Below are positions 6,664 through 51,475 of a stretch of 56,173 nucleotides of DNA, in pieces. The stretch is from Calditrichia bacterium (lineage in GTDB: Bacteria > Calditrichota > Calditrichia > RBG-13-44-9 > J075). How positions within the stretch are numbered: the first letter of the stretch is position 1; each line of letters starts with the position of its first letter. Under the pieces are notes generated by a model, which ran no database searches, was not told the DNA's origin, and saw only the letters and a program-made list of their open reading frames with translations. The position numbers and the translations under genes were made by a program. The DNA is taken from the NCBI GenBank assembly GCA_050633245.1, contig JBOEGD010000020.1, positions 1-56,173 of the forward strand, in the 5' to 3' direction.

Positions 6664-7872
6664 ATGGCTCCTAAAATTCTTGTGGTTGATGATGAGCAGG
6701 ATGTTGAACTGCTCATTAACTCCAGCTTCCGAAAAAAAATCAAATCCGGTGAGCTTAGTTTTCAATTCGCATACGATGGCGTACAGGCACTGGAAAAACT
6801 ACATGCCGATCCGCATATAGATGTGGTATTAAGCGATATTAATATGCCACGGATGGATGGGCTGACACTCACGTCGCGAATTCAGGAAGAGGCGATAAGA
6901 GCTAAAGTGATTATTGTCTCTGCCTATAGCGACATGATAAATATTCGACAAGCCATGAATTTGGGTGCTTTCGATTTTGTAACAAAACCTCTTGATCTGG
7001 AAGACCTGGAAAAAACGCTTTATAAAGTGCTAGTCCATCATTCACAAGCATTTAAGGAAGAGAATGTTGAGTTGAATGCCGCCCTGAGAGAGCTTCGTCA
7101 GACGCAACAACAGCTCGTTTTGCAGGAAAAAATGGCTTCTCTTGGTAGTTTGGTTGCCGGTATTGCTCATGAAATAAATACGCCGGTGGGCGTCATTAAT
7201 AGCAGCGTCGATACAATATCTCGCTGTGTTGAAAAGCTGGTTGCAACACTCAATGATTCTACTCTTGACCCCGAAATAGAGAAGCGAGTCGAAAAACTCT
7301 TTCGACTGTTAAATCAAAATGCCGGGCTCAGCCTTTCTGCAGGACATCGTGTTGCCGGAGTTGTGTCCAGCCTAAAGAACTTTGCACGGCTGGATCAGGA
7401 AGAGTTTCAACCGGCGAACCTGAACGAAGGGATTGAGAGCATCCTGGTGCTGTTGGCCGGCAAAATGGAAAATATTCAGGTTAAGACAGATTTGGCAGCG
7501 TTACCACTGCTTTACTGTTCACCGGGGCAGATAAATCAGGTCTTTATGAGTCTGCTGGTTAATTCCATTCAGGCCACATCCGGCACTGGTGAAATCTCCG
7601 TTACCTCCCGGCATAAAGAAAACCAAATTGAACTTCTGTTTACCGATACTGGAATCGGTATGTCCCCGGAACTGGTGAAATCTGTATTCGACTTTCGCTT
7701 CACCAAGGTCGGCGCTCGTGTGAAGATGGGAATCGGTTTAGCCTCAGCATATAACATTATTCAAAAGCATGGTGGAACTATTCGCCTGGAAAGTGAACCG
7801 GGAAAAGGCACTCGTGTTTGTATTGAGCTACCGCTCGTGCATGAGAATAAAACCAAAGTGGAAAAGGTATGA
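6664..7872 (+). CDS. Hybrid response regulator/histidine kinase (REC-HisKA-HATPase)
   Basis: [17 protein letters not shown] and FVTKP receiver motifs; H-box [10 protein letters not shown]; DTGIG, GIGL and GKGT ATPase boxes. Confidence 0.92.
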
Positions 7873-9062
7873 CTGAAAACCGCTGGACAGATGATTTTTT
7901 GAACTCATTGCGTATGCAAGGCGACCCGCTTGCGGACGAAACAGTGGAAAAGATGCTCAAGGATGGGACGATTCAGCATGCTGGTGAGTTATTTCGTACG
8001 CTGAAATCTAATGACGATCAGGTTGCAGATAAACGCATCCCCGAGCTGACAGAGTTTGTCGCAACAACAAAGGGATTGCCTAAAGGCACCGACCTTAAGC
8101 GCATTGAACGTGGAGAAGCGGCATTTATGCGCAGTGCTTTTCCCGCTTGTCTGGCTTTGCTATGCAAAAGTTTACCTGAAGGTTATGCCGCCCCAAACCT
8201 GTCTCTGATTCTCAACATATCCAAAAACCTTGAAAAACATCCCTATGCCCGATTGATAGCTGTTCTTCAACTGGTTGTCAATGTCGGCGCCCATCAGGGT
8301 TTTCAAGATGATGGACGAGCAGTAATAACAGCTCAAAAAGTACGCTTGCTCCACGCCGGTATCCGGCAAATTACCAACAAATATGTACCGGACTATTCAA
8401 AGAGCTACCAGGTACCGGTAAATCATGAGGATATGCTCGCAACAATCATGGGTTTTTCGCTTTTGGTTATAACGGGATTGGAAGCACTTGATGTACCACT
8501 AAAGGAACAGGAAGCGGAAGATTTGCTGTATCTTTGGTGTGTTTTTGCTCAAATGTGCGGCATCTACCCACCGGGAAAGCCTGAAAGCATGGAGTATCTT
8601 CCAACAAGTGTCGCTGACGCGAAGGCCTTTTATGCTGCCTTTGGACGCAGGCATTATGCAAACGTCAAAGACAACCCTGATGGCGTTGAGTTGACCCGGG
8701 CAAATATCAAAATGTTGGAAGATATGATTCCGTGGCCGCTGCGTTTGTTCGGCTTAAAGGTTCTTCCAAAAGTTTATCTCGTTCACATGACCGGCGTTGA
8801 AGCAGCTAGGCGCGTTGGCGTAAGTCCGGTTTGGGGGCACACTATATTTAAGAAAATAGCCTTTGGCCTGACCCGGTTGATAACGTTTGTCTGGCGAAAG
8901 GTGAACCGTGTTGACAAGCAGGAAGAAGAGTCCGGACATCACCACCGCACGTTTAGCAATATGGTGATGCAATTTCTAATCGATGAGAAGTTTGGTGGAG
9001 CCGTTGAGTTCACCATACCAGCGACGTTAAAGAATCTGCACAATATGGTTAAGAGGCCTTAG
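7869..9062 (+). CDS. MpaB/rubber-oxygenase (Lcp)-like heme oxygenase (DUF2236 family), cytoplasmic
   Basis: GDPLAD N-terminus, [14 protein letters not shown] (heme-ligand His region), [10 protein letters not shown]; no signal peptide. ATGA overlap with the upstream gene. Confidence 0.8.
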
Positions 9063-9083
9063 CCTTTTTGATTTGGGGGAAAT

Positions 9084-9770
9084 ATGTTAGATCATTTATT
9101 TAATCTTACTGCCTATACACCGCTTGAATTAACGCTCTTTGTTGGCGGATGTTATATGTGGGTAATTGTGTATGGTATCTATGTGCATCAATTGGTAAAG
9201 CATAAATTTGCTGAGATGCCTCTTTTTGCTGCTGCCAGCAATATCGGTTGGGAGTTTGTATATGGATATACGGCACCATTTACCGATATGGGTGCTGCCT
9301 GTCTGTGGGGATATCGTCTTTGGTTCATAGTCGATGTTTTTATCTTCTACGGCGTTTTGAAATTCGGTATGGAACAGGTGAAAACGATAAAACTAAAAGA
9401 GCATTTTAGGCCGGTGATGATACTGACGGCTCTGTTTTGGGCGGTTGCCTACTTTGCCTTTAAGAGCAGTGGACACGATACGATTATCGGAGCGAACTCG
9501 GCTTACATCGCACAGGCGATAATTTCATTCCTATATCCGCTGTGGATAATGAACAGCAAGCGTCCCATGCTTTTTTCACGAACTGTTGCCTGGTTGCGAA
9601 TGTTTGGAAGTGGGTTGATAACAATGTTTATGTTTATTCACTACGAATCCAATTATTATATCCAGGTTGTCGGAACCACCTGTGTGTTGCTGGATATACT
9701 GAGCATTTATTTGGTTTATCAACGTCGTTCTGAGGCGGCTCCAGTCGCTGTTGCAGAGGCTGTCGTATAG
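9084..9770 (+). CDS. Integral-membrane terpene cyclase-like protein (Pyr4/PaxB/XiaH type)
   Basis: 228 aa with about 7 TM helices; W-x-x-V-Y, MP..A...NIGWE motif and a late LLD, matching the two conserved acidic residues of Pyr4-type cyclases. Confidence 0.7.
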   Translation: MLDHLFNLTAYTPLELTLFVGGCYMWVIVYGIYVHQLVKHKFAEMPLFAAASNIGWEFVYGYTAPFTDMGAACLWGYRLWFIVDVFIFYGVLKFGMEQVKTIKLKEHFRPVMILTALFWAVAYFAFKSSGHDTIIGANSAYIAQAIISFLYPLWIMNSKRPMLFSRTVAWLRMFGSGLITMFMFIHYESNYYIQVVGTTCVLLDILSIYLVYQRRSEAAPVAVAEAVV

Positions 9771-12700
9771 TGTTTGATTTTCCCGGATATACATTTAAAG
9801 AGCAGCTCCACGAAGGTCGAAATACTGTCGTTGTGCGTGCAACTCGCCAGTCTGATAAGGCTCCGGTAATTTTGAAGGCGCTACAAAAGCGTAACCCGTA
9901 TCCACATGAGGCGGTGCAACTGCATCATGAATATGATGTGCTACAGACGCTAGCTGATGTAGGGGGTGTTGTGAATGCTTATGGCGTTGAGCGTGCTCAA
10001 GGCATTCATGCACTTGTTCTGGAAGATGGTGGAGGAGATTCGCTACGTAAAGTGATTGCGCGTAGCCAGCGGAGCCTGGAATTGTTTTATTCTCTTGCAA
10101 TCGAATTAGTTAACGTCATAAAAGCTGTTCATGATGCCCACATTCTGCATAAAGACATCAACCCCAATAATATTGTCTATCATTCTGTAACAGGTCGTGT
10201 TTCGCTTATCGACTTTGGCAGTGCGTCCAGGTTGTCCAAGTCGCAGGCCTCAATATTGAACCCGGCTCTCATTGAAGGCACGTTGGCCTATATCGCTCCG
10301 GAACAAACGGGAAGAATGAATCGCTCCATCGACTATCGTAGCGACTACTATGCATTGGGGGTAACGTTATATGAGCTGTTGTTGGGGATTCAGCCATTTC
10401 GCTCCAGCGATCCCATGGAGCAGATTCACAGCCACATTGCCCAGAAACCAGTCTCCCCACATATTTTGAACCGAGATATCCCGAAAATGTTGTCAGATAG
10501 CGTACTTAAGCTTATTGCGAAACATCCGGAAGACCGCTATCAGAGTGCAGAAGGGATTTTAGCTGACCTGGAATTTTGCCGCCAATCATCCGGCGATAGA
10601 CATTCTACCGGAGAATTTGTGCCAGGTAAACAGGAGGTGATGCGGCGATTACGCATTCCCGAAAAGCTATTTGGGCGTGAAAAGGAAATTGAGGCGCTTC
10701 GCGAGGCTTTTAAGCGAACCTTAAATGGACGGGAAGAATTTCTTCTGATTTCAGGTGGAGCAGGAGTTGGAAAATCAGTATTAGTGAATGAACTGCACAA
10801 GCCTGTATTGGCAGGCAATGGGATCTTTGTCTCCGGTAAGTTCGATCAACTTCAGCGCAATGTACCTTACTTTTCTGTTAGCAGAGCTTTTGAGGCGCTG
10901 ATAAGAAACTGGTTGTCTCAAGAAACCTCAATCTTGGAACACTGGCATGATAAACTGCAAGAGGCGCTCGGCAATAATGTGTCGGTACTCATTCAAGTGA
11001 TCCCCGAAATGGAGTTCTTGTTTGGTAAACAACCAGACCCTCCTGAGCTACCTGATGCCGAGACTAAAAACAGAATGCGTGAGGTGTTTGGACGATTTAT
11101 TCGCTCGATAGCAACGCCAGAGCATCCATTGGTATTGTTTATGGACGATCTACAGTGGGCTGATGGCGCATCGATTCAACTGTTGGAAATGCTCCTGACG
11201 GATTCCTTTGATACCTTTATGTTGGTTATTGGCACTTATCGTCCAAAAGAAGCGGTCAACAACACCCAGTTAATGACCTCTTTCGAAAACCTCGGTAAGC
11301 AGAACTTTGATATTACCGAAATAAACCTCGACCCATTGGATAAAGCTGCTGTTCAGCAAATGATCAGCGAAACGGTTCATCAGGAACCGAAAAAAGTAAC
11401 GGAATTGGCAAATCTCATTTTTCAAAAAACGGATGGCAATCCCTACTTTATTGGTGAATTTATCGGCTCTCTTCGAGAAAAAGAATTGTTGAAATTTGAT
11501 TACTCCGATCAGCGCTGGAATTGGGATCTAACTGAAATCGGCCGTGAAGGCATCACCGATAATGTTGTCGCACTAGTAAGTGAGAAGATTGGCCGTCTCG
11601 ATCCCGAAACGCAAAAGACACTCACGCTTGCAGCATGTATTGGTACTCGTTTCCAGTTGGGCATGCTGGTACATTTACGCAAAGTAGGACTGCGCGACAC
11701 CGTACTTCATCTCGATGAAGCAATTAAGAACGGCATGATTTACCCACATTCAACTAATTACACCTATTTGTATCGGCTTGCCGAGGATGCAGATAAACAA
11801 GCGTATAAATTGCCCTCCGAATATGAAGAACTGGAATTTTCGTTTTCTCATGATCGTGTTCAGCAGGCTGCATATGGATTAATCCCGGAATCCTCAACGT
11901 CGACAATGCACTTAAAAATCGGTCGGCGAATGCTGAAAGGGGAAGCGGGCATACCGGAAGATGATACTCTGTTTGATGCGCTGACGCATATCAATAAAGG
12001 ACTGCGGCATGTTAAACATATCGATGATCGCAAGCGTATTGCCGAGCTAAATTTGTTGGCTGGGCGCCGGGCAATTGCTTCGGTGGCATACGAGCCGTCT
12101 CTCCTGTTTCTGGAATCTGCTTCAAAAGGGCTGGGTAAAGAAAACTGGCAACATGATTATGACTTGTGTCGCAATGTGGAGCTGGAATATGCTCATGGTC
12201 TTCAGCTAAATGGGCAAATGGAGGAGGCGCACTCCGTGTTGCAGCGAATGCTTGATGTTGTAACGTCGGACATTGACAAAGCTCGTGTACAGGAGCTGCT
12301 GGTGCGAATGCACATGCAGAATGGGGATTATGACCAGGCGTTGGAAATTGGCCTGGAAGGCCTTGCGAATACGGGCATGAAGTTTCCCTCGACTGCCAAT
12401 AAGCTACAGGCCGGAAAAGAGATTTTAAGAACGCGACTTTTGCTGCGTGGTAAAACAATTGAAGATTTAATTAACCTGCCAGACATGAAGAACGAGGGTG
12501 CGCAGATTTCGCTTGCGATCCAGAGTTCGCTTCAGGGAATTCATTATGGCAGAAGCGCCGAGTTAAGTGGTATTAATATTTGTAAACAGCTGCTGACTGT
12601 TTTAAAACACGGTCTTTCTGCAGAGGCGTCCAATGCTTTTTCTCTATATGGAATGCTGCTTGCTATCGGGCTTGGCAATTATCAGGATGCTCGCGCCTTT

Positions 12701-15223
12701 TGTAAGTTGGGAATTAAGAATGCAGACAAGTTTGAAGACAATTTTCAAAAGGGACGTGCTATATTTACTCTGGCCTCCTCGGTTAACCACTGGACGCGGC
12801 CGGTCGAAAGTAACCTGAAACTAATAGAAGAAGTAGCTGTCCTTGCAGAAGAAAGTGGCGATTTACTCTACCGCGGGTTTTGTATTACGCAATCTGCAAA
12901 TATAATGCTGTTGCAAGGCAAACCTCTGAAGGAAACACAAGGGAAGTTTGTGAATTTTATGTCCTCCGCAAATCGGATGAAGTTTGTTCCCGCACAATAT
13001 TTTCTCGCTCTATCTTTACAGACAATTGCAGCGCTCCAGGGCGAAACAAAATCTCCTCTTAGCTTACAGTCAGAGACATTCGACGAAGATTTTTATCGAA
13101 ATGAGCAGCTTGACACCACGCTGGGATGGGTTCTGATTTGGTATTTGCAGCAAAAGCTGTTTCTGGGCTTACTATTTAATCAGCTGGACGATAAGCTTAT
13201 CGCTATGGCAGAGGAGCATCGACACAATGTGTTGGGGCAATTTAGTGAAGCGGAATACCTCTTTATTCGTTCGCTGATTCTCATTAGAAAAAGCCCCACG
13301 ACACGCGATGGAGATCCTCGCTTACCCGGTCGGGCAGCACGGAAAGAGATTGCCGCCAATCAGCGACGCTTTCGCAAATGGCAGAGTCTTGTACCGGAGA
13401 ACTTTAAAGCACGCTATCTGTTGGTGGAGGCAGAACGCGCTCGACTTTCCAGAAAAGAGGCGCTGGCAATGCGCTATTATGATGAGGCCATTGACGCTGC
13501 ATCAATGTACGAGCATCTGCGAGATGAAGCATTAGCAAATGAGTTAGCTGGTCTCTTCTTTCATCAGCTGGGGCGCCAACGTCAGGCCGCACTGTACATG
13601 CAGGAAGCCGTTTATTGTTATTCTCGTTGGGAGGCATGGGCCAAGGTCGAACAACTGCGTAGTGATTATGATCAGCTTCTTTCCGGTGGAGACTCACGTC
13701 ATTTCTTCACGGGCGGTAAGCGACTTAATCCAATTACAGATTCGACTGAAACGGTTGCCATTGAGTTGGATATTGCTACAATAATGAAGTCTGCGCAGAT
13801 ATTCTCTCAGGAAATTGTACTTGGTAAATTGCTCGAAAAGCTTATGCGTATCGTAATGGAAAATGCCGGTGCCGAACGTGGAAGCTTGATTATGGATAAT
13901 GATGGCAGGCTGGAAATTGAAGCCTATGGACAAATTGCCGATCAGGAAATAACTGTTTTAGAATCGCTTCCGGTAGAAAAGAGTGATATTTTGTCTGCTG
14001 CGGCCGTCAATTTGGTGGCTCGCAAGCGGCAGCCGCTGGTGGTCGACGATGCTTCGGCGCATCTCGATTATGTTAGCGATGCCTATGTGCAGCAAAATGC
14101 GGTTAAGTCTCTACTCTGTATGCCGGTACTTAACCAGAATAAACTTGTTGCTCTACTTTATCTCGAAAACAATCTTGTTAGTGGTGCGTTTACGCCGGAA
14201 CGCTTGCAGGTTCTGAAAATGTTGTCTGCCGATATTGCGATTTCTATTGAGAATGCCCGTCTTTATTCCAAGCTGGAAGACTATAGCCATACGCTGGAAG
14301 ATCGGGTGCAGGAACGTACTCAGGATCTTCAACAGCGCACAGAAGAACTACAGTCTGCTCTTGAAGAACTGAAGGGGGCCCAAACGCGGCTGGTTCATGC
14401 TCAAAAAATGGCTTCGCTCGGAGAGTTGACAGCCGGAATTGCACATGAAATTAAAAACCCGCTAAACTTCATTAACAACTTTGCGCAGCTGGCGACGAAT
14501 CTGGTTTCAGAGCTTGATGAAGTATTACAGCAGCCTGAGAAGATTCAGGAAGAAGATGTTCAGGAAGAAGTAAAGGACATTATGCAGACCCTGCAGCAAA
14601 ATACCGGCAAGATTGCCGAACACGGCAAGCGTGCGGACGATATTGTAAAAGGCATGTTGATGCACTCGCGCGATAAAACCGGCACTGTCCAGCAATTTAA
14701 TTTGAATCGAGTGCTTGCCGATGCGTTGAACCTGGCCCAACAGAGCCACTTTGCTCAGCATCCCGATCTGAAAATTCGCTTTCGCAGTGATTATGATGAT
14801 AGTGCCGGTGATATTCCCGGCGTTCCACAGGACATTAGTCGTGCGCTGCTGAATTTGTTGACAAATGCTTGTCATGCGGTTCGAGCACGTGCCGAGGAAA
14901 GCTCTGATATTGATTACGGTCCGCTGGTGGAGGTGTCTACTAAACAGACGTCAGATTCCATTATTGTGCGAGTACGCGATAATGGGGAAGGAATATCTAA
15001 AGAGAACCTTGGGAAGATCTTTAATCCATTCTTTACTACCAGACCGGCCGGCGAAGGCACCGGGCTTGGGCTGTCTATCTCTTATGATATTGTGGTGCAG
15101 GAACACGGTGGCTTGCTGGAGGTCGCAAGTGAAAAAGGAGAGTTTTGCGAGTTTTCGCTCGCCTTGCCGACAGATGAGGATAGTACCAGGCCGCTGTTGG
15201 CAAATCCAAAATCAATAAGCTGA
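9770..15223 (+). CDS. Trifunctional Ser/Thr kinase - AAA ATPase - GAF - histidine kinase
   Basis: [12 protein letters not shown] and APE kinase motifs; Walker A GGAGVGKS and Walker [10 protein letters not shown]; GAF (LYLENN); H-box [10 protein letters not shown]; FNPFFTT and GTGLGL. GTG start overlaps the upstream TAG. Confidence 0.93.
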
Positions 15224-41109: not shown

Positions 41110-42156
41110 CTATTTTTTCTTCTTGAACAAATATGCTACGTCTTCTTTGCGAGCCCCTTTTGCATCCGCAACACAAAAACTTCCACCACTATAAATTCCC
41201 GCAGCGCCGAACTCCCCTTTTTTATTAACGGCATAAAACTTCACGTTGAAGTTTGGCTGACCGTTTTGCTCGCGCAGATTCGGTAGTAAGGTGTTGTCGG
41301 CAATACGCTGGCAGGTTGCCAGACAGGCATCGGTCGGCGATTTTCCCTGACGCATAAATTCCACAACCAAAAATGAACATAGGTTCTTCAGGTTGGCTTC
41401 ACCACGTCCAGTTGAACCCGCAGCACCAACTTTATTGTCCACATAAAGACCAGCACCTATGATTGGTGAATCTCCAACTCGGCCTGGAATCTTGAAAAAT
41501 AAACCGCTCGTCGTGGTCACACCGGCTAAGTCGCCATTGGTATCGACTGCGCAACAATTGATTGTGCCATAAACATCGCGATGATTTTGCAGCATTTCGC
41601 TGTATTCATCTTCAGGCCCAGGAAACCAGTCGTCCTTCTCATTTGTTGTCTCTTTCCATCTTAACCACAATTTTCGGGATCTTTCGGTCAGAAGATCTTC
41701 TTTCTTAAAGCCGTGTGCTCTGGCAAATCGATTGGCACCTTCACCTACAAGTAAAACGTGATCAGTGCGTTCCATTACCAGCTTTGCGACCTTGGACGGA
41801 TTTTTAATCCCTTCAATTGCCCCAACCGCACCGGCGTTGTGTGTCGGGCCGTGCATAACAGACGAGTCGAGTTGGACGATCCCATCCTCATTAGGCAAGC
41901 CACCATAGCCAACGGTAATGTCATCGGGATCGTCTTCCACTATGTTTACCCCGGCAATTACCGCATCGAGCGGATCGCTCTTTTGCTTCAGCATTTCCAT
42001 GGCTTTTTTTACGGCTTCTAATCCATTTCCGCTTGAAACGACAACGGGATGATCCGGCTTCATCGCGGCCTGCGCAGAAGAAAACTGTAGAGATGCCGGC
42101 AATAGTGCTAATCCAAAACCAGCAGCAGAACGTTTTAAGAATTGTCTTCTTTTCAT
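41110..42156 (-). CDS. Tat-exported Ntn hydrolase, glycosylasparaginase/isoaspartyl peptidase (asparaginase 2) family
   Basis: MKRRQFLK Tat motif at ATG 42156 (AGGAG RBS); VGYGGLP, G|TI autocleavage site, TTTSG, GRVGDSPIIGAG and STGRGE. Confidence 0.9.
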   Translation of the reverse strand: MKRRQFLKRSAAGFGLALLPASLQFSSAQAAMKPDHPVVVSSGNGLEAVKKAMEMLKQKSDPLDAVIAGVNIVEDDPDDITVGYGGLPNEDGIVQLDSSVMHGPTHNAGAVGAIEGIKNPSKVAKLVMERTDHVLLVGEGANRFARAHGFKKEDLLTERSRKLWLRWKETTNEKDDWFPGPEDEYSEMLQNHRDVYGTINCCAVDTNGDLAGVTTTSGLFFKIPGRVGDSPIIGAGLYVDNKVGAAGSTGRGEANLKNLCSFLVVEFMRQGKSPTDACLATCQRIADNTLLPNLREQNGQPNFNVKFYAVNKKGEFGAAGIYSGGSFCVADAKGARKEDVAYLFKKKK

Positions 42157-42811
42157 ACAAACTCCTAATGTAATGATTGATGATCTATAGTCGATGAGTA
42201 GGTTCTTCAGAATGCTGATCAGATGAAACTGCATATTAATTTAGATTACACATTTGTGTGCAGAAAGACAAGCAGCCGGAGGGTAAAACAGGTTTGTGTT
42301 TACATGATTTTCTTAGGGGAGCATTTTTATTTCTTCTATGGATCAGAAATAAATCTTTACTATATTTGCCCCGTCTTTGCAGTAAAAAACGAATTAAAAG
42401 TGATTTTCATTAATTTTTTAAGTCTGGCAAGCTGTTACTTTTATCCGTTGCGTTCGAATCACCGACATCGCATCTATTTAAACTTTTGCGAACGCGCCCA
42501 GATATAGTTTAAAAGAACCTTTTTTAGTCGCCTCATCTGTCCGCTTTCGCGGCCGGCAGAGCAATCTGCAATACTGATTCACTGAATATTGACAACCTTT
42601 CAAATAGATTTACCAGCGTGCAGTTTTTTTGCGCTTCAAATTGAATGATGTATTTCATCTATGGTATCTGATTTTACGCTTATTTAGGCGCTTCAGATGC
42701 CGATTCTTTTTAAGTTACCTCTTTGGTATTTATAGTATTCACTAAGCTGGATGAAAAGCATAGTGACATTGAGCTTACTACTATCATAATATTATACTAC
42801 GGGATTGCAGC

Positions 42812-45800
42812 ATGGATAAAGTAACGATTCAGAGTGGTCTTGAATTTTTGAAAGATTCGTCCGCCGCAAAACGGGTCGCTTCACAGCAAAATGCGATTGA
42901 ACTCTTACTCGAAAATTACAAGCGAACGGATGTGAACGAGCAGCTGTCTGGTGACGCCGCTTATAAGGAATTGCGTTCAAAGTTGAGTGAGGCTACGGCA
43001 ATTTTTACGCTTACAGCTGTTCAGAAGGAGATATATCACTCTGACTCAGGTACGGCGGTTGTCCCGACATTTTTGAAGAACCGTCTTTTGAATCTTCATT
43101 GTCGCTTCGTGGTAAGACCCGGGACTCTCGAAGATCTACAGCTGTTTGTGGCTTATGCGCACAGTGAAAAGATCCGCTACACGGTTCGAGGATCTGGTAG
43201 TTGGCCATTTGGTGGCTCTATTCCGATGAATAACGAGATTGTCGTCGATCTGTCATATCTCGATTTCCACCAGCTGGATACCGAATCGGCAACGCTGACA
43301 ATTGGTGCCGGTGCCGTGTTTTCCAAGATGCGCACTGCTCTGAAGAAAGATGGATATGCGCTAAAACAAGAAATTACGAACCCTCATTCCGGAACAATTT
43401 GCGGTTGGATTGTTACCGGTGGTTTGGGCCTGGGAACCTATAAATATGGACCGGTTAAAGAATCGGTTAAGAAATTGTTTTTGCTTACTCCGTTCGGAGA
43501 GTGGAAAACACTTACGCCATCAGATGATTTATTCGATGACATCTTCGATAGTGAAGGTCAAATCGGGATTATCGCCGGCGCGGAAATCAGCGTAAAGAAA
43601 ATGAGCTTCGTATCAAAGCCTTATGCTTTTTCCTTTGAGCATTCTCGTGAAGCGGCAGCATTTATTGAACAGATTGAAGAGTGGAAGTTAAGCCCGACTT
43701 CAATCTTGTATTTCGACAAAAACTATATTACTACGACCTACCAGATCCAAAAAGAAAAACATCAGCATGAGCTGGAAAAGGCGCTTGCCTCTGAAGATGA
43801 TTTACGTATCGCTCGTGAACGACAGCAAATGGAAACCGTTGCCCGCTTGCAAAATTTGAATCATGTCGTGGCCATGGAGTTCGATACACAAGAAGACTAT
43901 GAGCAAACGCTGAAATATCACTTTTTCAATTCCCGAGAAGACAAGAGTCGTTACCGGGATATTTCATTTCAACGGCAGCCCGTCGATGTGGCTCACAAGT
44001 TTTGGGATCACCGTTTTGCACCGGTTGAAATGAAATCCAAAGGTCCATCGATGCTGGTTAGCGAATGCGTTCTGCCATTTGATAAATTCGCTGAATACTG
44101 CGATTTCATCCAATCTGCTATTACCAACTGGACGAATAATCCGGTGAAGACCGAAGCTCATGTGCTTCCCGGTGGCAAGCTGTTAATTCAGTCTATTTTG
44201 CTGGCTGATATTGGAACCAGACGCCATAAAATTTATCTTGGATTGGTTCCTTTTATGATGCAGACGGCAATTAGCTTTGGTGGTCGTCCCTATGGAACGG
44301 GTATCTGGAACTTGCCCTTCCTAAAGGGATTACGTGCAAATGGCTATGAAGAGAAAATCAATAAGCTGACCGAGCTGAAAAAAGAACTCGACCCGAACGG
44401 ACTGGTCAACCAGTGTAAGTATGTGCATCCAACCGGAAGGAAGGTTGCACTGCGACTGTTTTCCGGAACGACTCCATTGATAAATATAGGTGTTCGCTTT
44501 CTTCGGCGTGGTTGGAAAAAAGACTCCGGCTTCTCTATCTACTCGCTGGGTAGAATGTTGTGGCGCGCAAATCGTGCGATCTTCCCATCGGTTATCCCGC
44601 CTAATATTGAAGTAGAACGTCATCCCATTATGGAAATTAATGATTCCTGTGCCGAGTGCGACAGCTGTGAGAAGGTTTGTCCTACCAGTGATGTGTTTGG
44701 TATGTGGGGATTGGCTACGCCAATTACCCGCCGAAAAACGGCAAACAGATTGGCCAAAGGCGAGCAGATTGATCAGGAAGAAGCACTTGGCTTTCTGGTG
44801 TGTACGCGCTGCGATAACTGTACGCGCGTTTGTCCGTCCGATCTTCCGCTGACCGATATGTTCGACATGGTAGAAGGTGATAAGGCCTTCCAGGATGCGC
44901 TTGGACTTAGTTTGGATCAGAAAAATGATTTTGTCGATCGCATGTGGGACATTATGAAAGAAAGCCCGCTTTATGTTGAGCATACCAAAGCGGAGCAAAA
45001 GGAAGATAAGTCTCACCTTCAGCACGGGCTCGAAATTAATTACAAACGCGGTTATGCTTACGCGAAGCTTTTTATTGACGAAGAGACCTGTATTAATTGT
45101 GGAATGTGTGCTCATGAGAATGCCTGTATTTACGGTGCGCGGGCAGGTAACCCGCGTGAGATGCCGGAACTGATTGACGAAAACTGTGCGCTTTGTAATG
45201 CCTGTATTAACTTTTGTCCGCAGAATAAAGCGGTGCAGATGGAACGCGACTATATTCAAGACCTAATCACAAACGCTGTGGATATGGATGAGCAGCAGTA
45301 TTGGGAAGAGAAAAAAGGCTTCCTTCGTGATACGACAACCATCCAGCCGTCGCCAGAGGTTAAGGCAAAGTCAGATGTTTATGTAACAGAAGTTATTCTA
45401 ACGGAAATTGATAAAGAGGCATCAACCGGCCAGATACCGGTTTCCGGAATGGGACAAGGCGACCGCCACATGGGCATTGGTTTCGATGCCGAACGCTTTT
45501 CACATTTCCATATTGTCGGTCCGGCGCAGAACCGTCTACACGAAGGTGATCCTGATGAAGAACTGTCGGTTATTCTCGGCAAGCGCCATCGCTACTGTAA
45601 GTTTGACGAAAAAGAACGTCTGGACTTCGACCCGTTTCCAAACATTAAGCTGATGTCTCCGATGCTGTATAACTCAGTGAGGCTGCATAGCAATGGCCGT
45701 GCAGAGCTGGCGTTTATTAAAGTAGCCGAAATTCAGAGTACGCTGGCGGTTATTAAGCTGAACCGGCTTCTGGAAAATTATGATTTCTTCCTCGAGGAAG

Positions 45801-48800
45801 GCAAGTACGATCGACTGCCGCCGGTTGTTGTACCGCGGGTCGATCATGAAATGATTGATCACCTGCGCGTCAATCCGAATATCCGACGCGAAATGCTGAT
45901 GGATCTCTGGCGCATGCCGATGTTCGAAATTACGCCTCATAAAGAGATGGAATCGACCGTCCAGTTTATTCGCGAGTCGGCAAAATCGCTACATGACAAG
46001 TCGCCGCTGATTTGTGGTTATCTGGAAGTGTCGGAATACGATATTGTCGGTGGAGAGATTCTTCCAAAGCTGAAAAAACGTTTGGAAGCGTTAATGGCGC
46101 TGGATATTGATGTGCTGCACGTTCACGGTTTGCGCAATAAGGATCAATACTTTGTAACTTCAGAAGCTGTGCGCACCATTCACCATTATCTATTGAGCTC
46201 TGGACGCAGACACGGTATTTCGCTGGTTGCTTCTGGTGGAATTCGCTTGGCGTCCGATAGCCAGAAAACAATTCAGCGTGGCGCCGAAGCAACGCTATTG
46301 GATTTTGCTGCCCTCCTGGCTCTGGATCCGAATGCCTATCGCGCAACGCTTCAGGATAAAACGACGACGGATAAGTTAATCAATCTGGATATTGATATCG
46401 CCGTTGAGCGTCTGAATAACCAGATTGAATCTCGTAAAGTTCAAATTCTGGAAGTACTGGGTGCGTCCGGTTTTAAAGACATTAAAAAGACGGTTGGTGA
46501 AGAAGGGCGTTTGATTGATTTTTATGAACTGGAAGAACGCGTTCAGAAAGATATTTTTGAGCACGAGGAAAAAGTAACCGTTCATGAAAAACTAAATATC
46601 GATCTGTTGAAGAAAGAACCGCTTCCACCCAAGTCTTCTCCATCCTATACTGAGCTTCGCGAGCGTCTTACCGATCTGCGTTCTCCGCACCACTTCTACA
46701 ATCTGAGTGATGAGAATAAGACTGTTTATCAGCGCGACCATGTTTGGCCGGGAGATCTTATTCAAACCGTCGGAAAAATGGCCGCTGGTGATCCTGAAAT
46801 GGGCTACCTGAAAAACGTTAAGGCCACCGGCCTGCTCGGTGACGGTTTTGATGTAATGAAGATTCTTTATCAACAGGATCCGGATAATATTCCTGAAGAA
46901 GAACTTAATCATATCAGCACGGCACTGCCTCTCGATAAAGATCTGGTGTTAAGTGCCCCGTGGATGTTTGGTGGAAAGTCGGTGGGGTCGATTGGTCTCG
47001 ATACCTGGCGTTCGCATGTTATTGCATCCCGCGAGTTGGGTATTCAGTACGACAGTGGTGAGGGTGGCTATCCTACCAGCTTCTTCCTGAATCGCAAAGG
47101 TGAGCCGATCTTTTTCGATGAGCCGGAAATGAAGCTGATTAAGAAACATTTTGAGCACGATACGCAACACACCTGTCAGGAAATTCGGGATATCCTTAGT
47201 AAGAATGGCATGACGAAAGACAAGTATCCGCGAATCTTTGAAGTACTGGAAGCGTATCCGGATTCGCAGCCATTTCTATATTATGAAGTTATTGGTGAGG
47301 CTGATGAGCCGTTTGTCTCAACCGAGATGAAAACAGGGCTTTTCGGAGTTACCAAAGAAACTATCAAAAAAGCACGCCGCGTTGTTATTGCATATAGCCA
47401 GGGCGCAAAGATGGGAATTGGTGGTCACATTCTCGCCGGTAAGGTAAACAAACTTGTGTCTTACCTGCGCGGTATTCAAGGAATGGAAGAGCTGAATACC
47501 GATCGCGTAAAGTCTTTGATTGAACGCATCGAGAGAATTGAAGCAAGTGCCGATCACCCATTAAAGGGAGAAACAAAAGAAATCTTTAGTGAATTGAAGC
47601 GAGCTCATGATGATGAAGAGGTTTATCCTGAACTAAAGACATTGCTCTGGAAAATTCAGCAGAAGACCTATGAACTGAATGAGGAAGGCAAACTCGATCA
47701 GCTGGATTTCGAATCTATCCTGCGAATGTGTGAGGAAGTAATCTCCTTCTCCTACAGCAGCGTGATTTCACCATTTCCATTCCACAACTGCTATTCTATT
47801 GAAGATGTAAAATCCTTCATCGATATGGTTCGCATGATTAACCCGGGGGCAGTTGTTTCGGTTAAGGTCTCACCATCGGTCGATATTGAGTTTATTGCCG
47901 CCGGTCTGGCACGCATTTCCCGCGACAATACGAATGAAGTGCTGAAGCGTAAAGTGAAAGAAGTTGAGTCGAATACGCTACAGCTATCTGATGAGCTTGC
48001 TGAGTACGCGCGAAAGTACGGTATGCAGATCGAGATTTGGTTGGACGGACCGCGTGGTGGAACCGGAGCTTCGCCGAACATAATTAAAGGTCAGATGGGA
48101 ATGCACATCGAATATGCCATCCCGCTAATCCACGATCGCCTGGTGCGCGATGGCTTGCGCAACAGCGTAAAATTTATTGTGAGTGGTGGAATTCGGACCT
48201 ATGAAGATGTTATCAAGGCCGTTGCTCTCGGAGCCGACGGCGTTATCTGGGGAACGGCTCCGCTGGTTGCTATTGGTTGCGATCGTAATCGTAACTGTCA
48301 CGACGGCTGCTCGCGCGGAATTGCAACCAGTAACCTGATTATGCAGAACCTGCGTAATGTAGATCTAAACTCAAAACAAATGATTAATGCCTTCCTGGTT
48401 ATGCAGATGCAGGTTATTCGCGCGCTTGCAGGATTAGGACTGAAAGATATTCGCGAGCTGCGTGGCCGTTTTGATAAGGTGCAGTGGATTGGTTTAAAAG
48501 AACGCGTCGATTTCCGTATTCGCCAGCGTCGCGAACACTCCAAGCATACGCGTGATATGATGAAGCCGGCGGCAGAGCTGGAACATCAGACCGGGCAGAC
48601 GAACTGTGGTGTGGCCGCGGTTATCGGAACGCATAATGTGCCGAGTTATATTTTGGATGAAGCGCTTTATGCTATGAAGAACCGCGGAATGGATGGTGTT
48701 GGTGTTGGTAAAACTTTATGCTTTCCGGAGTTTCCACATCATTATGCCTACCGCGTTATGGTGAAGGGAAAGCTGCAGCTGGAGATGGAAGAACATCTGC

Positions 48801-51475
48801 GCAAAAATAACGGTACAATTAAAAGCGAAGATGCATATCGCAAGAAGGCGCGCAAGAACTTGTTGGAATATCGTTACGAACTTGCACAGAAGATTCGCAA
48901 CATTTTCCTGGAGCCTTTCTTTGAATTTAGCGGTGAGACAGATGTTCGCAAAGTTCGTGAACCATATAAAGAGAAGAATAATGTCGAGCGCGACTATCGC
49001 GAGTTTGGCAATCCGAATACCGATCCGGGAGATATCTTCCGTTTCTTCGTTCGTGTAAAAGAAGATGTGCTGATCGAATTTATCGAAAACGAACTACTCT
49101 CGGCACCGCGTTTTGCATACGTTCGTGAATTTTTCAGCGATATCGACCGCACAAACTATCGTGAGTCCGGCCGCTTCATGCAGAAAGCGGAAGACTTTTT
49201 TGTCTTTAATCATTCCGTCATGTTAACACAGGTTCTGTACGTATGGGATCTGCAGTCGGACGACTGGTCTGAGCATGCTGCCAAAAATGATGCGTTCCGT
49301 GAGTACCTGCCGATTCTACTGCAGGACGATCCATTCGCAGGTAACGGCATGGGAAGCCATGTCGATGGCTATTTGCAGCTGCTGAAGAGCTTTATTGCGG
49401 AATATCCGTTCAGCGATTTTAAGCATAAATACACGGCGCGTACTCGCAAAATTGCTGCGGTAATGTCCTGTGGTAAGAACTTTGCCATTTGGAAAACCGC
49501 TGGACGTGAAATTCCGTGGGAAACGCCCGCATCACCAAATAATATTATTCACGTGCGTTTGGCAACCGGCTCGGTTGTAGAGCAAATGAATGCGCATCCA
49601 TTTGGCAAGTTGCATACCGCTCTCACCCATAATGGTGAAACGACTAACTACGAAACGTTGAAGCAGCGCGTTGAGCAGTTTGGACTGCCGCCATTGGCCA
49701 GTACTGATACCGAGGTGGCTTCGCTGAAGTTTCACCTGGTCGCTGAAGAATTGGAATATCCCGATTGGGCACTATTCGAAAGCCTCTCTCCAACAACCGG
49801 TGATGACCTGGCACTTATGCCGGAAGAAATGCGCTCGGAGTTGGAAGGCGTTCAGCGAGTGGAATTTACCAGCTCACCGGACGGGCCATACCAATATCTT
49901 TGTCTGCGCCACAACCCGAATGATGGAGCAACGGAACGTATCGATCTGAAAGATCCTGCCGACCTTCGTCCGGGAACGACATCGTTTTGGTACGACAACA
50001 ACGGAAAAGACAAGCGAGCTTATAGCATTATTGCTTCAGAGGAACAGGCCAGTCAGCGTGTGCTCGAACTACTGGACAAAGAAGGCTTGATTGACGGAGC
50101 TATGCCGGATCTGGTAACGGTGAGTAATGGTATGATCAATCGCTTCGAATATGATGAAAGCGGAAAGATCTACGACTACAAATTATTTGATCGCTATGGA
50201 AACAGCATCGACCTGCCGGATAGCGGAGAACACTATAGCTTTAAGCGTAACAAGGTTAAGAAGCCGAAGAATGCTGCTGATCTGCTAAAGCTGATTAACG
50301 AATTAAGCGTCTCAGAACTGAAAACTCATATTCGCGAGAATGTTGCCAAATGGGATTTCAACTCGTATCGCTGGATGATGCACCAACTTGTAGAGCAAGG
50401 CTTGGCTAAAAAGGGAAGTAAGTCTTCTAACGAGTGCATTGAGCTAATGACCTGGTGCATTGATATCTTGCGAACTATTGATACCGGCAAGATGGCGACC
50501 AGTTCACTTGTGGATATTACTCAAAATGTACTGGATGCTTTTTTCGATAGCCTGGCAGAATCTCATAGCGATATCTGGGTGAAGCGCACCTTCGAGAACT
50601 CGGATGTACCGAAAGTTGGTGACGCAGACAAGCAGATTCTGCTTCTCGATGCAACCGGCTTCGAGCCTGAAGGAATTGATCCTGAGCTTTGCCTGGCAGC
50701 TCTGCTAACCAAGGCATACGATCTTGGCTGGCGCAAATACGTGCTGTATCGCGTTAACGGTCAGCGCCTCATCTCGACCGCCGTCATGGGAAGTTCCGAT
50801 ACCGAAGATGTTGTTATCGACGTCTACGGAATGCCGGGCGAGTATTTTGGTGCATTTATGCAGGGTGGCACTATTCGCTGTCATGGAAACGCTCAGAACT
50901 TCTGTGCAATGGGAATCCATCATGGAAATCTAACCGTTTACGGAAATGCCGGTAAGGTTTGCGGCTATGCTTCGAAGGGTGGCAAGATTGTGATCCTTGG
51001 TGATATCGTTGACCGCGCGTGGACGAACTCTGTAAACGATCCACGCTGTCAGGATCTGGAAATACACATTCTCGGTAGCGCCAGTAAGTATGCTGGTGAA
51101 TCGCTTATGGGTGGAGACTTCTTCTTTGGCGGCATGTATTTTGATCAGAACGGTCAGCTGCGTACGCAGGACCGTCCATATCGCGGCACCAAGATGATGG
51201 GTGGGGCATCGCGTGGAAGAATGCTCTTCTTTAACCCAAAGGACTCGCTGCACGAAAATCAGTATACGCATGGTAAAATCGAAGAGATTAGCGATGAGGA
51301 CTGGGGTTACTGGAAAGATACGGTTGAGAGCACTCTGGAAACTGCAGGCGTCTCCTTAACGAAGAAGGGCGAGGTTACCTCTTTTGTCGCCGATGAGACC
51401 GAGTTTGAAATTGATCGCAAAAACTTCACGCTGATCATCCCAAAGGGCGGACTAAAAGGCTACGAATCGCATTAA
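42812..51475 (+). CDS. Giant glutamate-synthase-related fusion: FAD-linked oxidoreductase + 4x[4Fe-4S] motifs + two GltS-type barrels + class II GATase + GXGXG domain
   Basis: RGSGS/GTICGW/SEGQIG (FAD_binding_4); CxxCxxCxxxCP motifs; DSGEGG, SQGAKMGIGGHI, DGPRGGTGASP, SGGIRT and CDRNRNCHDGC; NCGV, RGMDGVG, HVRLAT, AHPF, HNGE and TDTEV; G-rich beta-helix at the C-terminus. Confidence 0.85.
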   Translation: MDKVTIQSGLEFLKDSSAAKRVASQQNAIELLLENYKRTDVNEQLSGDAAYKELRSKLSEATAIFTLTAVQKEIYHSDSGTAVVPTFLKNRLLNLHCRFVVRPGTLEDLQLFVAYAHSEKIRYTVRGSGSWPFGGSIPMNNEIVVDLSYLDFHQLDTESATLTIGAGAVFSKMRTALKKDGYALKQEITNPHSGTICGWIVTGGLGLGTYKYGPVKESVKKLFLLTPFGEWKTLTPSDDLFDDIFDSEGQIGIIAGAEISVKKMSFVSKPYAFSFEHSREAAAFIEQIEEWKLSPTSILYFDKNYITTTYQIQKEKHQHELEKALASEDDLRIARERQQMETVARLQNLNHVVAMEFDTQEDYEQTLKYHFFNSREDKSRYRDISFQRQPVDVAHKFWDHRFAPVEMKSKGPSMLVSECVLPFDKFAEYCDFIQSAITNWTNNPVKTEAHVLPGGKLLIQSILLADIGTRRHKIYLGLVPFMMQTAISFGGRPYGTGIWNLPFLKGLRANGYEEKINKLTELKKELDPNGLVNQCKYVHPTGRKVALRLFSGTTPLINIGVRFLRRGWKKDSGFSIYSLGRMLWRANRAIFPSVIPPNIEVERHPIMEINDSCAECDSCEKVCPTSDVFGMWGLATPITRRKTANRLAKGEQIDQEEALGFLVCTRCDNCTRVCPSDLPLTDMFDMVEGDKAFQDALGLSLDQKNDFVDRMWDIMKESPLYVEHTKAEQKEDKSHLQHGLEINYKRGYAYAKLFIDEETCINCGMCAHENACIYGARAGNPREMPELIDENCALCNACINFCPQNKAVQMERDYIQDLITNAVDMDEQQYWEEKKGFLRDTTTIQPSPEVKAKSDVYVTEVILTEIDKEASTGQIPVSGMGQGDRHMGIGFDAERFSHFHIVGPAQNRLHEGDPDEELSVILGKRHRYCKFDEKERLDFDPFPNIKLMSPMLYNSVRLHSNGRAELAFIKVAEIQSTLAVIKLNRLLENYDFFLEEGKYDRLPPVVVPRVDHEMIDHLRVNPNIRREMLMDLWRMPMFEITPHKEMESTVQFIRESAKSLHDKSPLICGYLEVSEYDIVGGEILPKLKKRLEALMALDIDVLHVHGLRNKDQYFVTSEAVRTIHHYLLSSGRRHGISLVASGGIRLASDSQKTIQRGAEATLLDFAALLALDPNAYRATLQDKTTTDKLINLDIDIAVERLNNQIESRKVQILEVLGASGFKDIKKTVGEEGRLIDFYELEERVQKDIFEHEEKVTVHEKLNIDLLKKEPLPPKSSPSYTELRERLTDLRSPHHFYNLSDENKTVYQRDHVWPGDLIQTVGKMAAGDPEMGYLKNVKATGLLGDGFDVMKILYQQDPDNIPEEELNHISTALPLDKDLVLSAPWMFGGKSVGSIGLDTWRSHVIASRELGIQYDSGEGGYPTSFFLNRKGEPIFFDEPEMKLIKKHFEHDTQHTCQEIRDILSKNGMTKDKYPRIFEVLEAYPDSQPFLYYEVIGEADEPFVSTEMKTGLFGVTKETIKKARRVVIAYSQGAKMGIGGHILAGKVNKLVSYLRGIQGMEELNTDRVKSLIERIERIEASADHPLKGETKEIFSELKRAHDDEEVYPELKTLLWKIQQKTYELNEEGKLDQLDFESILRMCEEVISFSYSSVISPFPFHNCYSIEDVKSFIDMVRMINPGAVVSVKVSPSVDIEFIAAGLARISRDNTNEVLKRKVKEVESNTLQLSDELAEYARKYGMQIEIWLDGPRGGTGASPNIIKGQMGMHIEYAIPLIHDRLVRDGLRNSVKFIVSGGIRTYEDVIKAVALGADGVIWGTAPLVAIGCDRNRNCHDGCSRGIATSNLIMQNLRNVDLNSKQMINAFLVMQMQVIRALAGLGLKDIRELRGRFDKVQWIGLKERVDFRIRQRREHSKHTRDMMKPAAELEHQTGQTNCGVAAVIGTHNVPSYILDEALYAMKNRGMDGVGVGKTLCFPEFPHHYAYRVMVKGKLQLEMEEHLRKNNGTIKSEDAYRKKARKNLLEYRYELAQKIRNIFLEPFFEFSGETDVRKVREPYKEKNNVERDYREFGNPNTDPGDIFRFFVRVKEDVLIEFIENELLSAPRFAYVREFFSDIDRTNYRESGRFMQKAEDFFVFNHSVMLTQVLYVWDLQSDDWSEHAAKNDAFREYLPILLQDDPFAGNGMGSHVDGYLQLLKSFIAEYPFSDFKHKYTARTRKIAAVMSCGKNFAIWKTAGREIPWETPASPNNIIHVRLATGSVVEQMNAHPFGKLHTALTHNGETTNYETLKQRVEQFGLPPLASTDTEVASLKFHLVAEELEYPDWALFESLSPTTGDDLALMPEEMRSELEGVQRVEFTSSPDGPYQYLCLRHNPNDGATERIDLKDPADLRPGTTSFWYDNNGKDKRAYSIIASEEQASQRVLELLDKEGLIDGAMPDLVTVSNGMINRFEYDESGKIYDYKLFDRYGNSIDLPDSGEHYSFKRNKVKKPKNAADLLKLINELSVSELKTHIRENVAKWDFNSYRWMMHQLVEQGLAKKGSKSSNECIELMTWCIDILRTIDTGKMATSSLVDITQNVLDAFFDSLAESHSDIWVKRTFENSDVPKVGDADKQILLLDATGFEPEGIDPELCLAALLTKAYDLGWRKYVLYRVNGQRLISTAVMGSSDTEDVVIDVYGMPGEYFGAFMQGGTIRCHGNAQNFCAMGIHHGNLTVYGNAGKVCGYASKGGKIVILGDIVDRAWTNSVNDPRCQDLEIHILGSASKYAGESLMGGDFFFGGMYFDQNGQLRTQDRPYRGTKMMGGASRGRMLFFNPKDSLHENQYTHGKIEEISDEDWGYWKDTVESTLETAGVSLTKKGEVTSFVADETEFEIDRKNFTLIIPKGGLKGYESH

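Follow-up and report, generated by a model that had tools for sequence, protein, structure and literature searches.

A giant single-chain candidate glutamate synthase with fused FAD and iron-sulfur domains in a Calditrichia bacterium

The window analysed here is a stretch of 56,173 nucleotides from a Calditrichia bacterium (contig JBOEGD010000020.1 of assembly GCA_050633245.1). On its forward strand, at 42812..51475, it holds a single open frame of 2887 amino acids without interruption, in the following called the giant. The encoded protein joins a flavin adenine dinucleotide (FAD) module and two ferredoxin-like domains to the domains of a glutamate synthase. Judging by its sequence relationships, we regard it as probably the single-chain form of a multi-subunit glutamate synthase with a built-in electron entry.

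The giant gene and its domains

Frame reading and a Pfam scan agree with the original prediction, which had been made from the letters alone, both in the 2887-residue frame and in the order of its domains. The parsing gives FAD, Fe-S, central barrel, flavin mononucleotide (FMN) barrel, class II glutamine amidotransferase (GATase) and GXGXG. The predicted positions and motifs were recovered as well: the codon of Cys613 starts at base 44648 and that of Cys1932 at base 48605, SGGIRLASD occupies residues 1141-1149, and CDRNRNCHDGC occupies residues 1823-1833. The features are as follows, each with the evidence for it; Ntn stands for N-terminal nucleophile and pLDDT for the predicted local distance difference test of a structure model.

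42812..51475 (+): whole open reading frame, 2887 amino acids plus stop; open-frame reading
43106..43513 (+): FAD_binding_4, FAD-binding domain of the VAO/PCMH type, residues 99-234; Pfam, 1.7e-24
43625..44419 (+): FAD-oxidase_C-like cap domain, residues 272-536, His450 kept; Pfam and alignments
44642..44842 (+): first 2x[4Fe-4S] ferredoxin-like domain (Fer4_8/17), residues 611-677; Pfam and cysteine pattern
45071..45241 (+): second 2x[4Fe-4S] domain (Fer4_21), residues 754-810; Pfam and cysteine pattern
45521..46591 (+): degenerate (beta/alpha) barrel with SGGIRLASD, about residues 904-1260; weak PF01645 match at 1119-1221, VIA-align
46700..48496 (+): FMN synthase (beta/alpha)8 barrel, about residues 1297-1895; Pfam, alignment and fold match
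48278..48310 (+): cluster motif C1823-X5-C1829-X3-C1833; alignment to A. brasilense GltS, all three Cys invariant
48497..48604 (+): variable linker, residues 1896-1931, ending with Asn1931; sequence variability and low pLDDT
48605..50161 (+): class II (Ntn) amidotransferase domain with large inserts, residues 1932 to about 2450; GATase_6 and fold matches
50162..50731 (+): helical middle region between GATase and beta-helix, about residues 2451-2640; helices 557-653 of the model
50732..51472 (+): C-terminal beta-helix (GXGXG / FwdC-like), about residues 2641-2887; Pfam and scans with the model set

The FAD-binding domain scores 86.5 bits with PF01565. The FMN barrel, which carries QGAKMGIGGH (with K1533) and SYLR (with R1553), scores 206.6 bits with Glu_synthase (PF01645; 8.3e-61, cut-off 20.4) in four stretches, the best of them at residues 1742-1877. 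In the amidotransferase domain, which keeps HVRLAT, HNG and TDTE and has Cys1932 as its putative nucleophile, the Pfam match to GATase_6 (residues 2244-2303) reaches 30.6 bits versus a cut-off of 27. FAD-oxidase_C (PF02913) is weak, with 20.6 bits versus 21.2, and GXGXG (PF01493, residues 2664-2738) obtains 31.8 bits in the whole protein versus a cut-off of 32.5, and 34.7-34.8 bits with the C-terminal part by itself. The cysteines of the first dicluster are C613/616/619/623 and C664/667/670/674, and those of the second are C760/763/766 plus one more Cys shortly afterwards, and C792/795/798/802. In the model of residues 831-1931, the last 20 residues, which belong to the linker, have a pLDDT below 50.

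A length-matched search gave 189 homologues; counts of size and motif refer to the 119 that were listed besides the query. Among these, 71 have 2780-3000 amino acids and 53-71% identity and come from records named Calditrichia, KSB1, Krumholzibacteria, Gemmatimonadetes and Zhuqueibacterota. A further 26 have 2500-2580 amino acids (31-41% identity in BLASTP) and carry Thermodesulfobacteriota names, and three exceed 3000 amino acids, with 28% identity. The search for homologues of the same architecture that had been suggested with the original prediction thus yields 100 sequences of at least 2500 amino acids among the 119 listed, and the internal Cys-Gly-Val...Asn-Arg-Gly motif is present in every one of these 100. 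All 8664 bases of the gene are moreover covered unbroken by contigs of 15.3 and 40.3 kb from two runs of one study, which differ from it by 607 substitutions and 0 gaps; third codon positions take 37 of the 40 differences listed. That the giant arose from lost stop codons or joined genes in assembly or annotation has practically no chance of being correct: since independent contigs run through the gene without gaps and 100 full-length homologues occur in independent assemblies, with substitutions falling mainly on third positions, we consider misassembly and lost stops ruled out.

The synthase half and its split relatives

Conservation was assessed in 27 sequences from three groups that are 28-39% identical to the query. 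Invariant in all of them are C1932-G-V, N1957-R-G, H2247/R2249/T2252, H2273-N-G and T2298-D-T of the amidotransferase, K1533, R1553 and C1823/C1829/C1833 of the FMN barrel, and 15 of the 16 dicluster cysteines. In the first dicluster this concerns seven of eight, C670 being outside the invariant list. The roles of the glutamine-site residues (C1932, R2249, N2274-G2275 and D2299) are presumably those known from work on GlmS and PurF. In A. brasilense GltS (2vdc_A) the counterparts of K1533 and R1553 in the alignment are the Lys of QGAKPGEGG and the Arg of ARLR; QGAKMGIGGH of the giant stands opposite QGAKPGEGGQ, and SYLR opposite ARLR. We take these positions, from work on GltS, to be the 2-oxoglutarate site. 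The three cysteines (C-X5-C-X3-C) align with the CX5CX4C stretch of 2vdc_A, which we take to be the 3Fe-4S site, and their motif is one residue shorter. A regular expression for this motif matches 97 of the 100 full-length homologues.

The fold models point in the same direction. Residues 831-1931 were modelled with a pLDDT of 74, and the model matches large subunits of GltS in Foldseek at 1.9e-17. Model residues 74-1065, which are residues 904-1895 of the giant, were aligned by VIA-align to 1ea0_A 512-1182 with a Z of 28.1, 550 aligned residues and a root mean square deviation of 8.6. According to the limits given in PMC8097209, residues 512-1182 of A. brasilense GltS cover the central and synthase domains. 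Because the model aligns across both of them, the degenerate barrel of the original prediction, which is real and is seen in Pfam as the weak PF01645 match at about 1119-1221, is the counterpart of the GltS central domain. By this model the amidotransferase alone is displaced relative to GltB, and the central barrel keeps its usual place before the FMN barrel. For residues 1932-2887 a model with a pLDDT of 83.9 and a predicted template modelling score (pTM) of 0.88 was obtained, whose fold matches GlmS (9e-8), PurF and GltS.

The origin of the domain order becomes clear from relatives in which the parts are separate genes. The C-terminal 956 residues were searched against 1.8 billion representatives, and many proteins of 830-900 amino acids were found that consist of the C-terminal module alone. 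On contigs of one genome per species, the module is encoded at no fewer than 594 loci, spanning Calditrichota, KSB1, Thermodesulfobacteriota, Planctomycetota, Chloroflexota, Bathyarchaeia and ANME-1, a group of anaerobic methanotrophic archaea (ANME). The products that bear it are annotated just as 'FAD-binding protein' or 'glutamate synthase-related protein'. At one ANME-1 locus (L039) the genes follow each other as glnA, FAD_binding_4 plus FAD-oxidase_C plus Fer4 (613 amino acids), Fer4 plus a weak Glu_synthase barrel (481), Fer4 plus the Glu_synthase FMN barrel (507), GATase-X-GXGXG (849), carB and carA. The four products between glnA and carB align in order with residues 71-711, 758-1249, 1297-1888 and 2194-2831 of the giant, and the N-terminal Fer4 of the stand-alone barrel subunit is the equivalent of the giant's second dicluster. 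Since the ANME-1 products are colinear with the giant, it can be understood as this operon read as one chain. The permuted order claimed in the original prediction therefore stands as an order, although not as a rearrangement of canonical GltB: a widespread split enzyme has its genes arranged as FAD, central-like barrel, FMN barrel and GATase-beta-helix, and on alignment the giant follows this arrangement. The helical middle region, too, is found in the split subunits.

Fusions of different extent occur. One locus (L083) is intermediate, with FAD (670 amino acids), barrel plus FMN (1150) and the GATase-GXGXG subunit (923), and barrel plus FMN fusions of 982-987 amino acids are found in three further loci (L040, L058 and L080). 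The protein P0137, with 3152 amino acids, has the opposite order, GATase-GXGXG first and then FAD, FeS, barrel and FMN. Its leader comprises 78 residues, with a hydrophobic stretch at the start and DTEGG just before the Cys. Because the same parts have been fused independently, we see good evidence that they work together. In an unrooted FastTree tree of 69 GATase-GXGXG modules, long branches separate the fused groups 1 and 2, group 3 with P0137, and 48 split forms; a single origin of the fused state may be compatible with this tree, and the number of fusions is not settled by it. A form that seemed split exactly at the Cys (L037) was rejected, as its frame is broken where the scaffold has runs of N. 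On these sequence comparisons, a predicted core of three parts, namely the barrel, the FMN/Fe-S barrel and the fused amidotransferase/beta-helix, is widespread in anaerobic bacteria and archaea.

The giant shares with A. brasilense GltB (1ea0/2vdc/6s6s) the Ntn amidotransferase, the central barrel, the FMN barrel with its three-Cys motif and the beta-helix, as well as the QGAK...GG and ...LR motifs. It differs from GltB in that its GATase follows the FMN barrel, it has no GltD partner and it is twice the size; electrons would enter through the fused VAO-type FAD domain and four [4Fe-4S] clusters. Moreover, its cluster motif is CX5CX3C instead of CX5CX4C, and its GATase resembles GlmS/PurF more closely than PF00310. 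The ferredoxin-dependent enzyme of Synechocystis (Fd-GltS; 1ofd/1llw), which the model of the barrels matches in Foldseek at 2e-16 to 1.5e-15, is likewise a single chain without pyridine-nucleotide subunit and with one-electron delivery to Fe-S and FMN. Its donor is free ferredoxin, whereas the chain of the giant includes the ferredoxin-like and FAD domains.

N-methylglutamate synthase MgsABC reportedly consists of separate homologues of the GltB domains 1, 2 and 3, so that the scaffold can serve another amine chemistry. By description, the split relatives resemble MgsABC in having homologues of GltB domains as separate parts; MgsABC differs in its subunit makeup, lacks an FAD/Fe-S input and stands in a methylamine context. 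No methylamine genes were seen in the surroundings of the giant and its split relatives, the latter being accompanied by glnA/carAB or MetF/Hdr genes.

According to PMC3448663, the characterised glutamate synthases draw their electrons from NADH, NADPH or ferredoxin. An F420-dependent enzyme (FGltS) of methanogens and ANME is described in PMC3448663, PMC3087415 and PMC9012536 as predicted from gene context, not purified. FGltS resembles the family studied here in combining an archaeal-type GltS core with a dedicated, exchangeable flavin/Fe-S input subunit encoded alongside; its input is an F420-binding protein of the FrhB/FdhB/Fsr-N kind, unlike the VAO/PCMH-type FAD_binding_4 module of the giant, in which everything is fused. 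In the literature outside subscription journals, to which our search was limited, no publication came to light in which a VAO-type FAD oxidoreductase is fused to, or clustered with, a glutamate synthase, nor was this architecture met as an already characterised enzyme.

Proposed electron entry and chain cleavage, and alternative readings

The proposed enzyme would work as follows. FAD would be reduced by a two-electron donor, and FMN would receive the electrons one by one, by way of four [4Fe-4S] clusters and the 3Fe-4S-like cluster. Glutamine would be hydrolysed at Cys1932, the ammonia would reach 2-oxoglutarate at the FMN site, and the 2-iminoglutarate formed would be reduced there to glutamate. 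The synthase half of this scheme is well supported by the residues and folds described above; the electron path and the overall reaction are given as we infer them. In good agreement with a GltS-type enzyme having a fused FAD and Fe-S entry, as the original prediction had it, the same FAD subunit is a separate gene in ANME-1 operons beside glnA and carBA.

An Ntn amidotransferase works with the free amino group of its Cys1. As Cys1932 is internal, the amidotransferase needs a cleavage of the chain to obtain a free amino terminus; this chief difficulty for the mechanism is absent from the original prediction. In the 100 full-length homologues listed, the internal Cys is preceded by Asn (71), Asp (26) or Ala (3). 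All 48 stand-alone GATase-GXGXG subunits with an intact N-terminus have the motif E-G-G-C-G-V behind a leader of at least four codons, the nearest in-frame start codon being 4-35 codons upstream, which makes leader removal look like a trait of the family. The giant thus probably cleaves itself between Asn1931 and Cys1932, giving chains of about 220 and 108 kDa, with the N-terminal 1931 residues staying as the redox chain. B. subtilis PurF and bacterial GltB are Ntn amidotransferases made with a propeptide, whose removal exposes the catalytic Cys. The leaders of the split relatives, with 4-35 or more residues and ending in EGG before the Cys, are similar to these propeptides; the 'leader' of the giant is different, as it has 1931 residues and would be retained as the enzyme's redox half.

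A profile of 11 aligned FAD modules aligns over its full length with LctD (7qh2_C; 4.4e-42, profile positions 95-536), followed by LDHD, alkyl-DHAP synthase, glycolate oxidase and D2HGDH. With LctD and the D-lactate, glycolate and D-2-hydroxyglutarate dehydrogenases (7qh2_C, 8jdb, 9qgz, 6lpn) the module of the giant has the FAD_binding_4 plus FAD-oxidase_C fold in common, and it keeps the first His as well as the K..DP..LN..K motif at the C-terminus. It differs from them in its fusion to ferredoxin domains and a glutamate synthase, and opposite the GHAGDGN-LH and SGEHGIG of LctD, its family shows EAH...L/A and PYG-x-G-I/L-W. In NCBIfam, the best FAD match is the GlcD equivalog TIGR00387, with 57.2 bits versus a cut-off of 567.9, and the YdiJ equivalog NF049975 gives 26.9 bits versus 1350.

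Several findings weigh against the giant being a glutamate synthase with built-in electron entry. None of the 11 modules has the second His or the Glu-His of LctD and LDHD, residues that presumably coordinate the metal holding the hydroxyacid; their positions are taken by L/A and by a deletion plus T/I/V, respectively, and only the first His (H450) is kept. With two of three metal ligands missing, the FAD site may oxidise no small substrate at all. The FMN site of the giant has an invariant His (His1539) where A. brasilense GltS has the Gln behind GEGG. The canonical order of GATase, central domain, FMN barrel and GXGXG is not that of the giant, its GATase domain has no match to the GltB-type PF00310 at E<=0.001, and the whole protein scores 113.8 bits with the gltB equivalog NF008730 versus a cut-off of 1047. 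Its own genome has two glutamate dehydrogenase (GDH) genes. In 10 loci no neighbours from nitrogen metabolism and no conserved flank of the giant were found. Finally, in a survey of 86 genomes of the phylum, which as relatives are not independent, giant and canonical GltB occur together in six, the giant alone in 27, canonical GltB alone in 23 and neither in 30.

These findings bear unequally on the other explanations. If the FAD site oxidised a D-2-hydroxyacid (D-lactate, glycolate or D-2-hydroxyglutarate) in the otherwise same enzyme, reductive amination would be driven directly by an organic acid being oxidised, and with D-2-hydroxyglutarate as donor 2-oxoglutarate would be supplied too. 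Textbook redox potentials would allow this, the best solved relatives of the module are LctD, mouse LDHD, glycolate oxidase and D2HGDH, and beside GlcD as best NCBIfam match the next dicluster is of the GlpC/GlcF type (Fer4_8/17). Yet two of the three metal ligands are absent from every aligned module, which weakens the idea, the GlcD score is far below its cut-off, and no hydroxyacid transporter or pathway gene lies near the giant in the window or in the flanks of 10 loci, so that we hold a hydroxyacid donor to be rather unlikely. Of the self-sufficient enzyme in the original prediction, the fused FAD/Fe-S entry without GltD is retained, and the oxidation of an organic substrate is made less likely by the two missing metal ligands. 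An alternative donor may be a hydride carrier like NAD(P)H, by analogy with MurB, which has a VAO-type fold able to use NAD(P)H.

A GltS-like machine might also serve another chemistry, with a different amide donor or 2-oxoacid, a transfer as in N-methylglutamate synthase, or another reductive amination. The distance of the GATase from the GltB type, the Gln-to-His change, the canonical GltB present in six of the 33 giant-bearing genomes and the lack of a nitrogen-gene context of the giant would fit, but the GlmS/PurF-type residues of the glutamine site and the Lys and Arg aligned with the 2-oxoglutarate site are invariant, and split homologues adjoin glnA or carAB in 17 of 60 loci; we judge it unlikely to be right. 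Still less probable is an uncleaved chain with the amidotransferase as a structural relic, which would use free ammonia, or oxidise glutamate and pass electrons out via FAD. An internal Cys would indeed be unable to act as Ntn nucleophile without cleavage, and the organism has GDH genes and may live on amino acids. This is opposed by the invariance of Cys1932 and the full glutamine-site set across the three divergent groups and by the leader that likewise precedes the Cys in 48 of 48 split subunits.

A single-chain glutamate synthase with its own electron entry is thus our preferred reading, and the family would add another electron route into nitrogen assimilation. Metabolic reconstructions of these uncultured anaerobes that are based on gltB and gltD would call GOGAT (glutamine:2-oxoglutarate aminotransferase) absent. 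The single-chain form is handy for biochemistry, as the whole electron path lies in one gene, and it poses a clean question on the self-cleavage of a huge precursor. A bolder version, which we put forward tentatively and with more doubt than belief, would make the family a fourth class of glutamate synthase, in which the VAO flavin domain oxidises a small organic or other two-electron donor directly, without NAD(P)H or free ferredoxin, maturation is by an Ntn-type self-cleavage with the 1931-residue 'propeptide' kept as redox subunit, and the core is a plug-in acceptor. It counts sets of MetF/MetV/MvhD/HdrL, which resemble electron-bifurcating complexes, among the exchangeable inputs; if it is true, nitrogen assimilation is tied directly to redox chemistry of the Wood-Ljungdahl type.

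Candidate electron inputs and genomic context

Neighbours of the core were counted in 60 split-type loci. A VAO-type FAD subunit stands beside it in four of them, and MetF/MetV/MvhD, with or without HdrC, HdrB and a protein of about 1500 amino acids similar to HdrA and GltD, in 30; some other loci, e.g., in Bathyarchaeia, have no recognisable input gene beside the core. glnA is present in 11 loci and carA or carB in nine, which makes up the 17 loci mentioned above. The protein of about 1500 amino acids matches what the D. autotrophicum genome paper calls HdrL.

A conserved cluster was observed in the order MvhD, MetF, barrel, FMN barrel, GATase-GXGXG, HdrC-like, HdrB-like, HdrL (about 1500 amino acids), MvhD and MetV (L073:3185-17218; also L045, L052, L061, L062, L067, L071, L081 and L096). 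Its hosts are metagenome-assembled genomes (MAGs) of Planctomycetota, Chloroflexota, Spirochaetota, Verrucomicrobiota and Thermodesulfobacteriota. By its gene content, the cluster suggests a glutamate synthase wired to a complex of the bifurcation type. In a Methanophagaceae MAG (L049:6425-11690), a GATase-GXGXG subunit of 864 amino acids is flanked by proteins of 417 and 468 amino acids that matched neither the barrel nor the FMN references, possibly a further arrangement or input type.

The own genome of the giant is 97% complete, and its contigs were searched with profiles. No match to PF00310 and none to the GltD-type Fer4_20 were found in it, GXGXG occurs in the giant gene only, and there is one glnA; the check for separate gltB and gltD genes that accompanied the original prediction thus found neither. 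With no PF00310, no other GXGXG and no Fer4_20, the giant is the sole complete set of GATase, FMN barrel and GXGXG in this genome. Two further proteins match PF01645 only: one of 538 amino acids on contig C26 combines an N-terminal Rieske [2Fe-2S] domain with a Glu_synthase FMN barrel (L001:919-2535), the other has 601 amino acids (L002:844-2649). Both are without an amidotransferase partner, and the Rieske-fused one is without a GXGXG partner, too.

In the phylum survey the giant is present in 33 of the 86 genomes and canonical GltB in 29, and 27 of the 33 giant-bearing genomes are without canonical GltB. The giant is common in the phylum and often the lone GOGAT candidate. A strict replacement of canonical GltB is unsupported, as six of 33 giant genomes hold both; because of these and of the 30 of 86 genomes that hold neither, the giant is neither a strict replacement nor essential.

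The giant gene is apparently monocistronic, with unrelated neighbours that are not conserved. Among the sequencing runs listed as containing the gene, none was of RNA. As the original prediction had noted, no gltD is adjacent to it, and no ferredoxin gene is adjacent either. In the window, it is surrounded by a divergent Asparaginase_2 gene and by genes for a HEAT-repeat protein, a PKD-domain protein and a UvrD helicase. The Asparaginase_2 gene (isoaspartyl peptidase/L-asparaginase type; 41110-42234, minus strand) lies 577 bases upstream and belongs to a family of self-cleaving Ntn hydrolases; it was not seen beside the giant in the 10 other loci. The flanks in these loci vary and include a tRNA methyltransferase, PIN, YdjC and a histidine kinase with a sigma-54 activator. 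In the last case (L028:10924-13850), the histidine kinase and the sigma-54-dependent response regulator directly follow the giant gene. A sigma-54 promoter, which would hint at nitrogen control, found no support: the window has 18 matches, whereas chance alone would give 30, and no match in 42235-42811 is convincing. Elsewhere in the window, an open reading frame of 1817 amino acids (9770-15223, plus strand) is preceded by a run of open frames on the same strand from 6664 to 9770.

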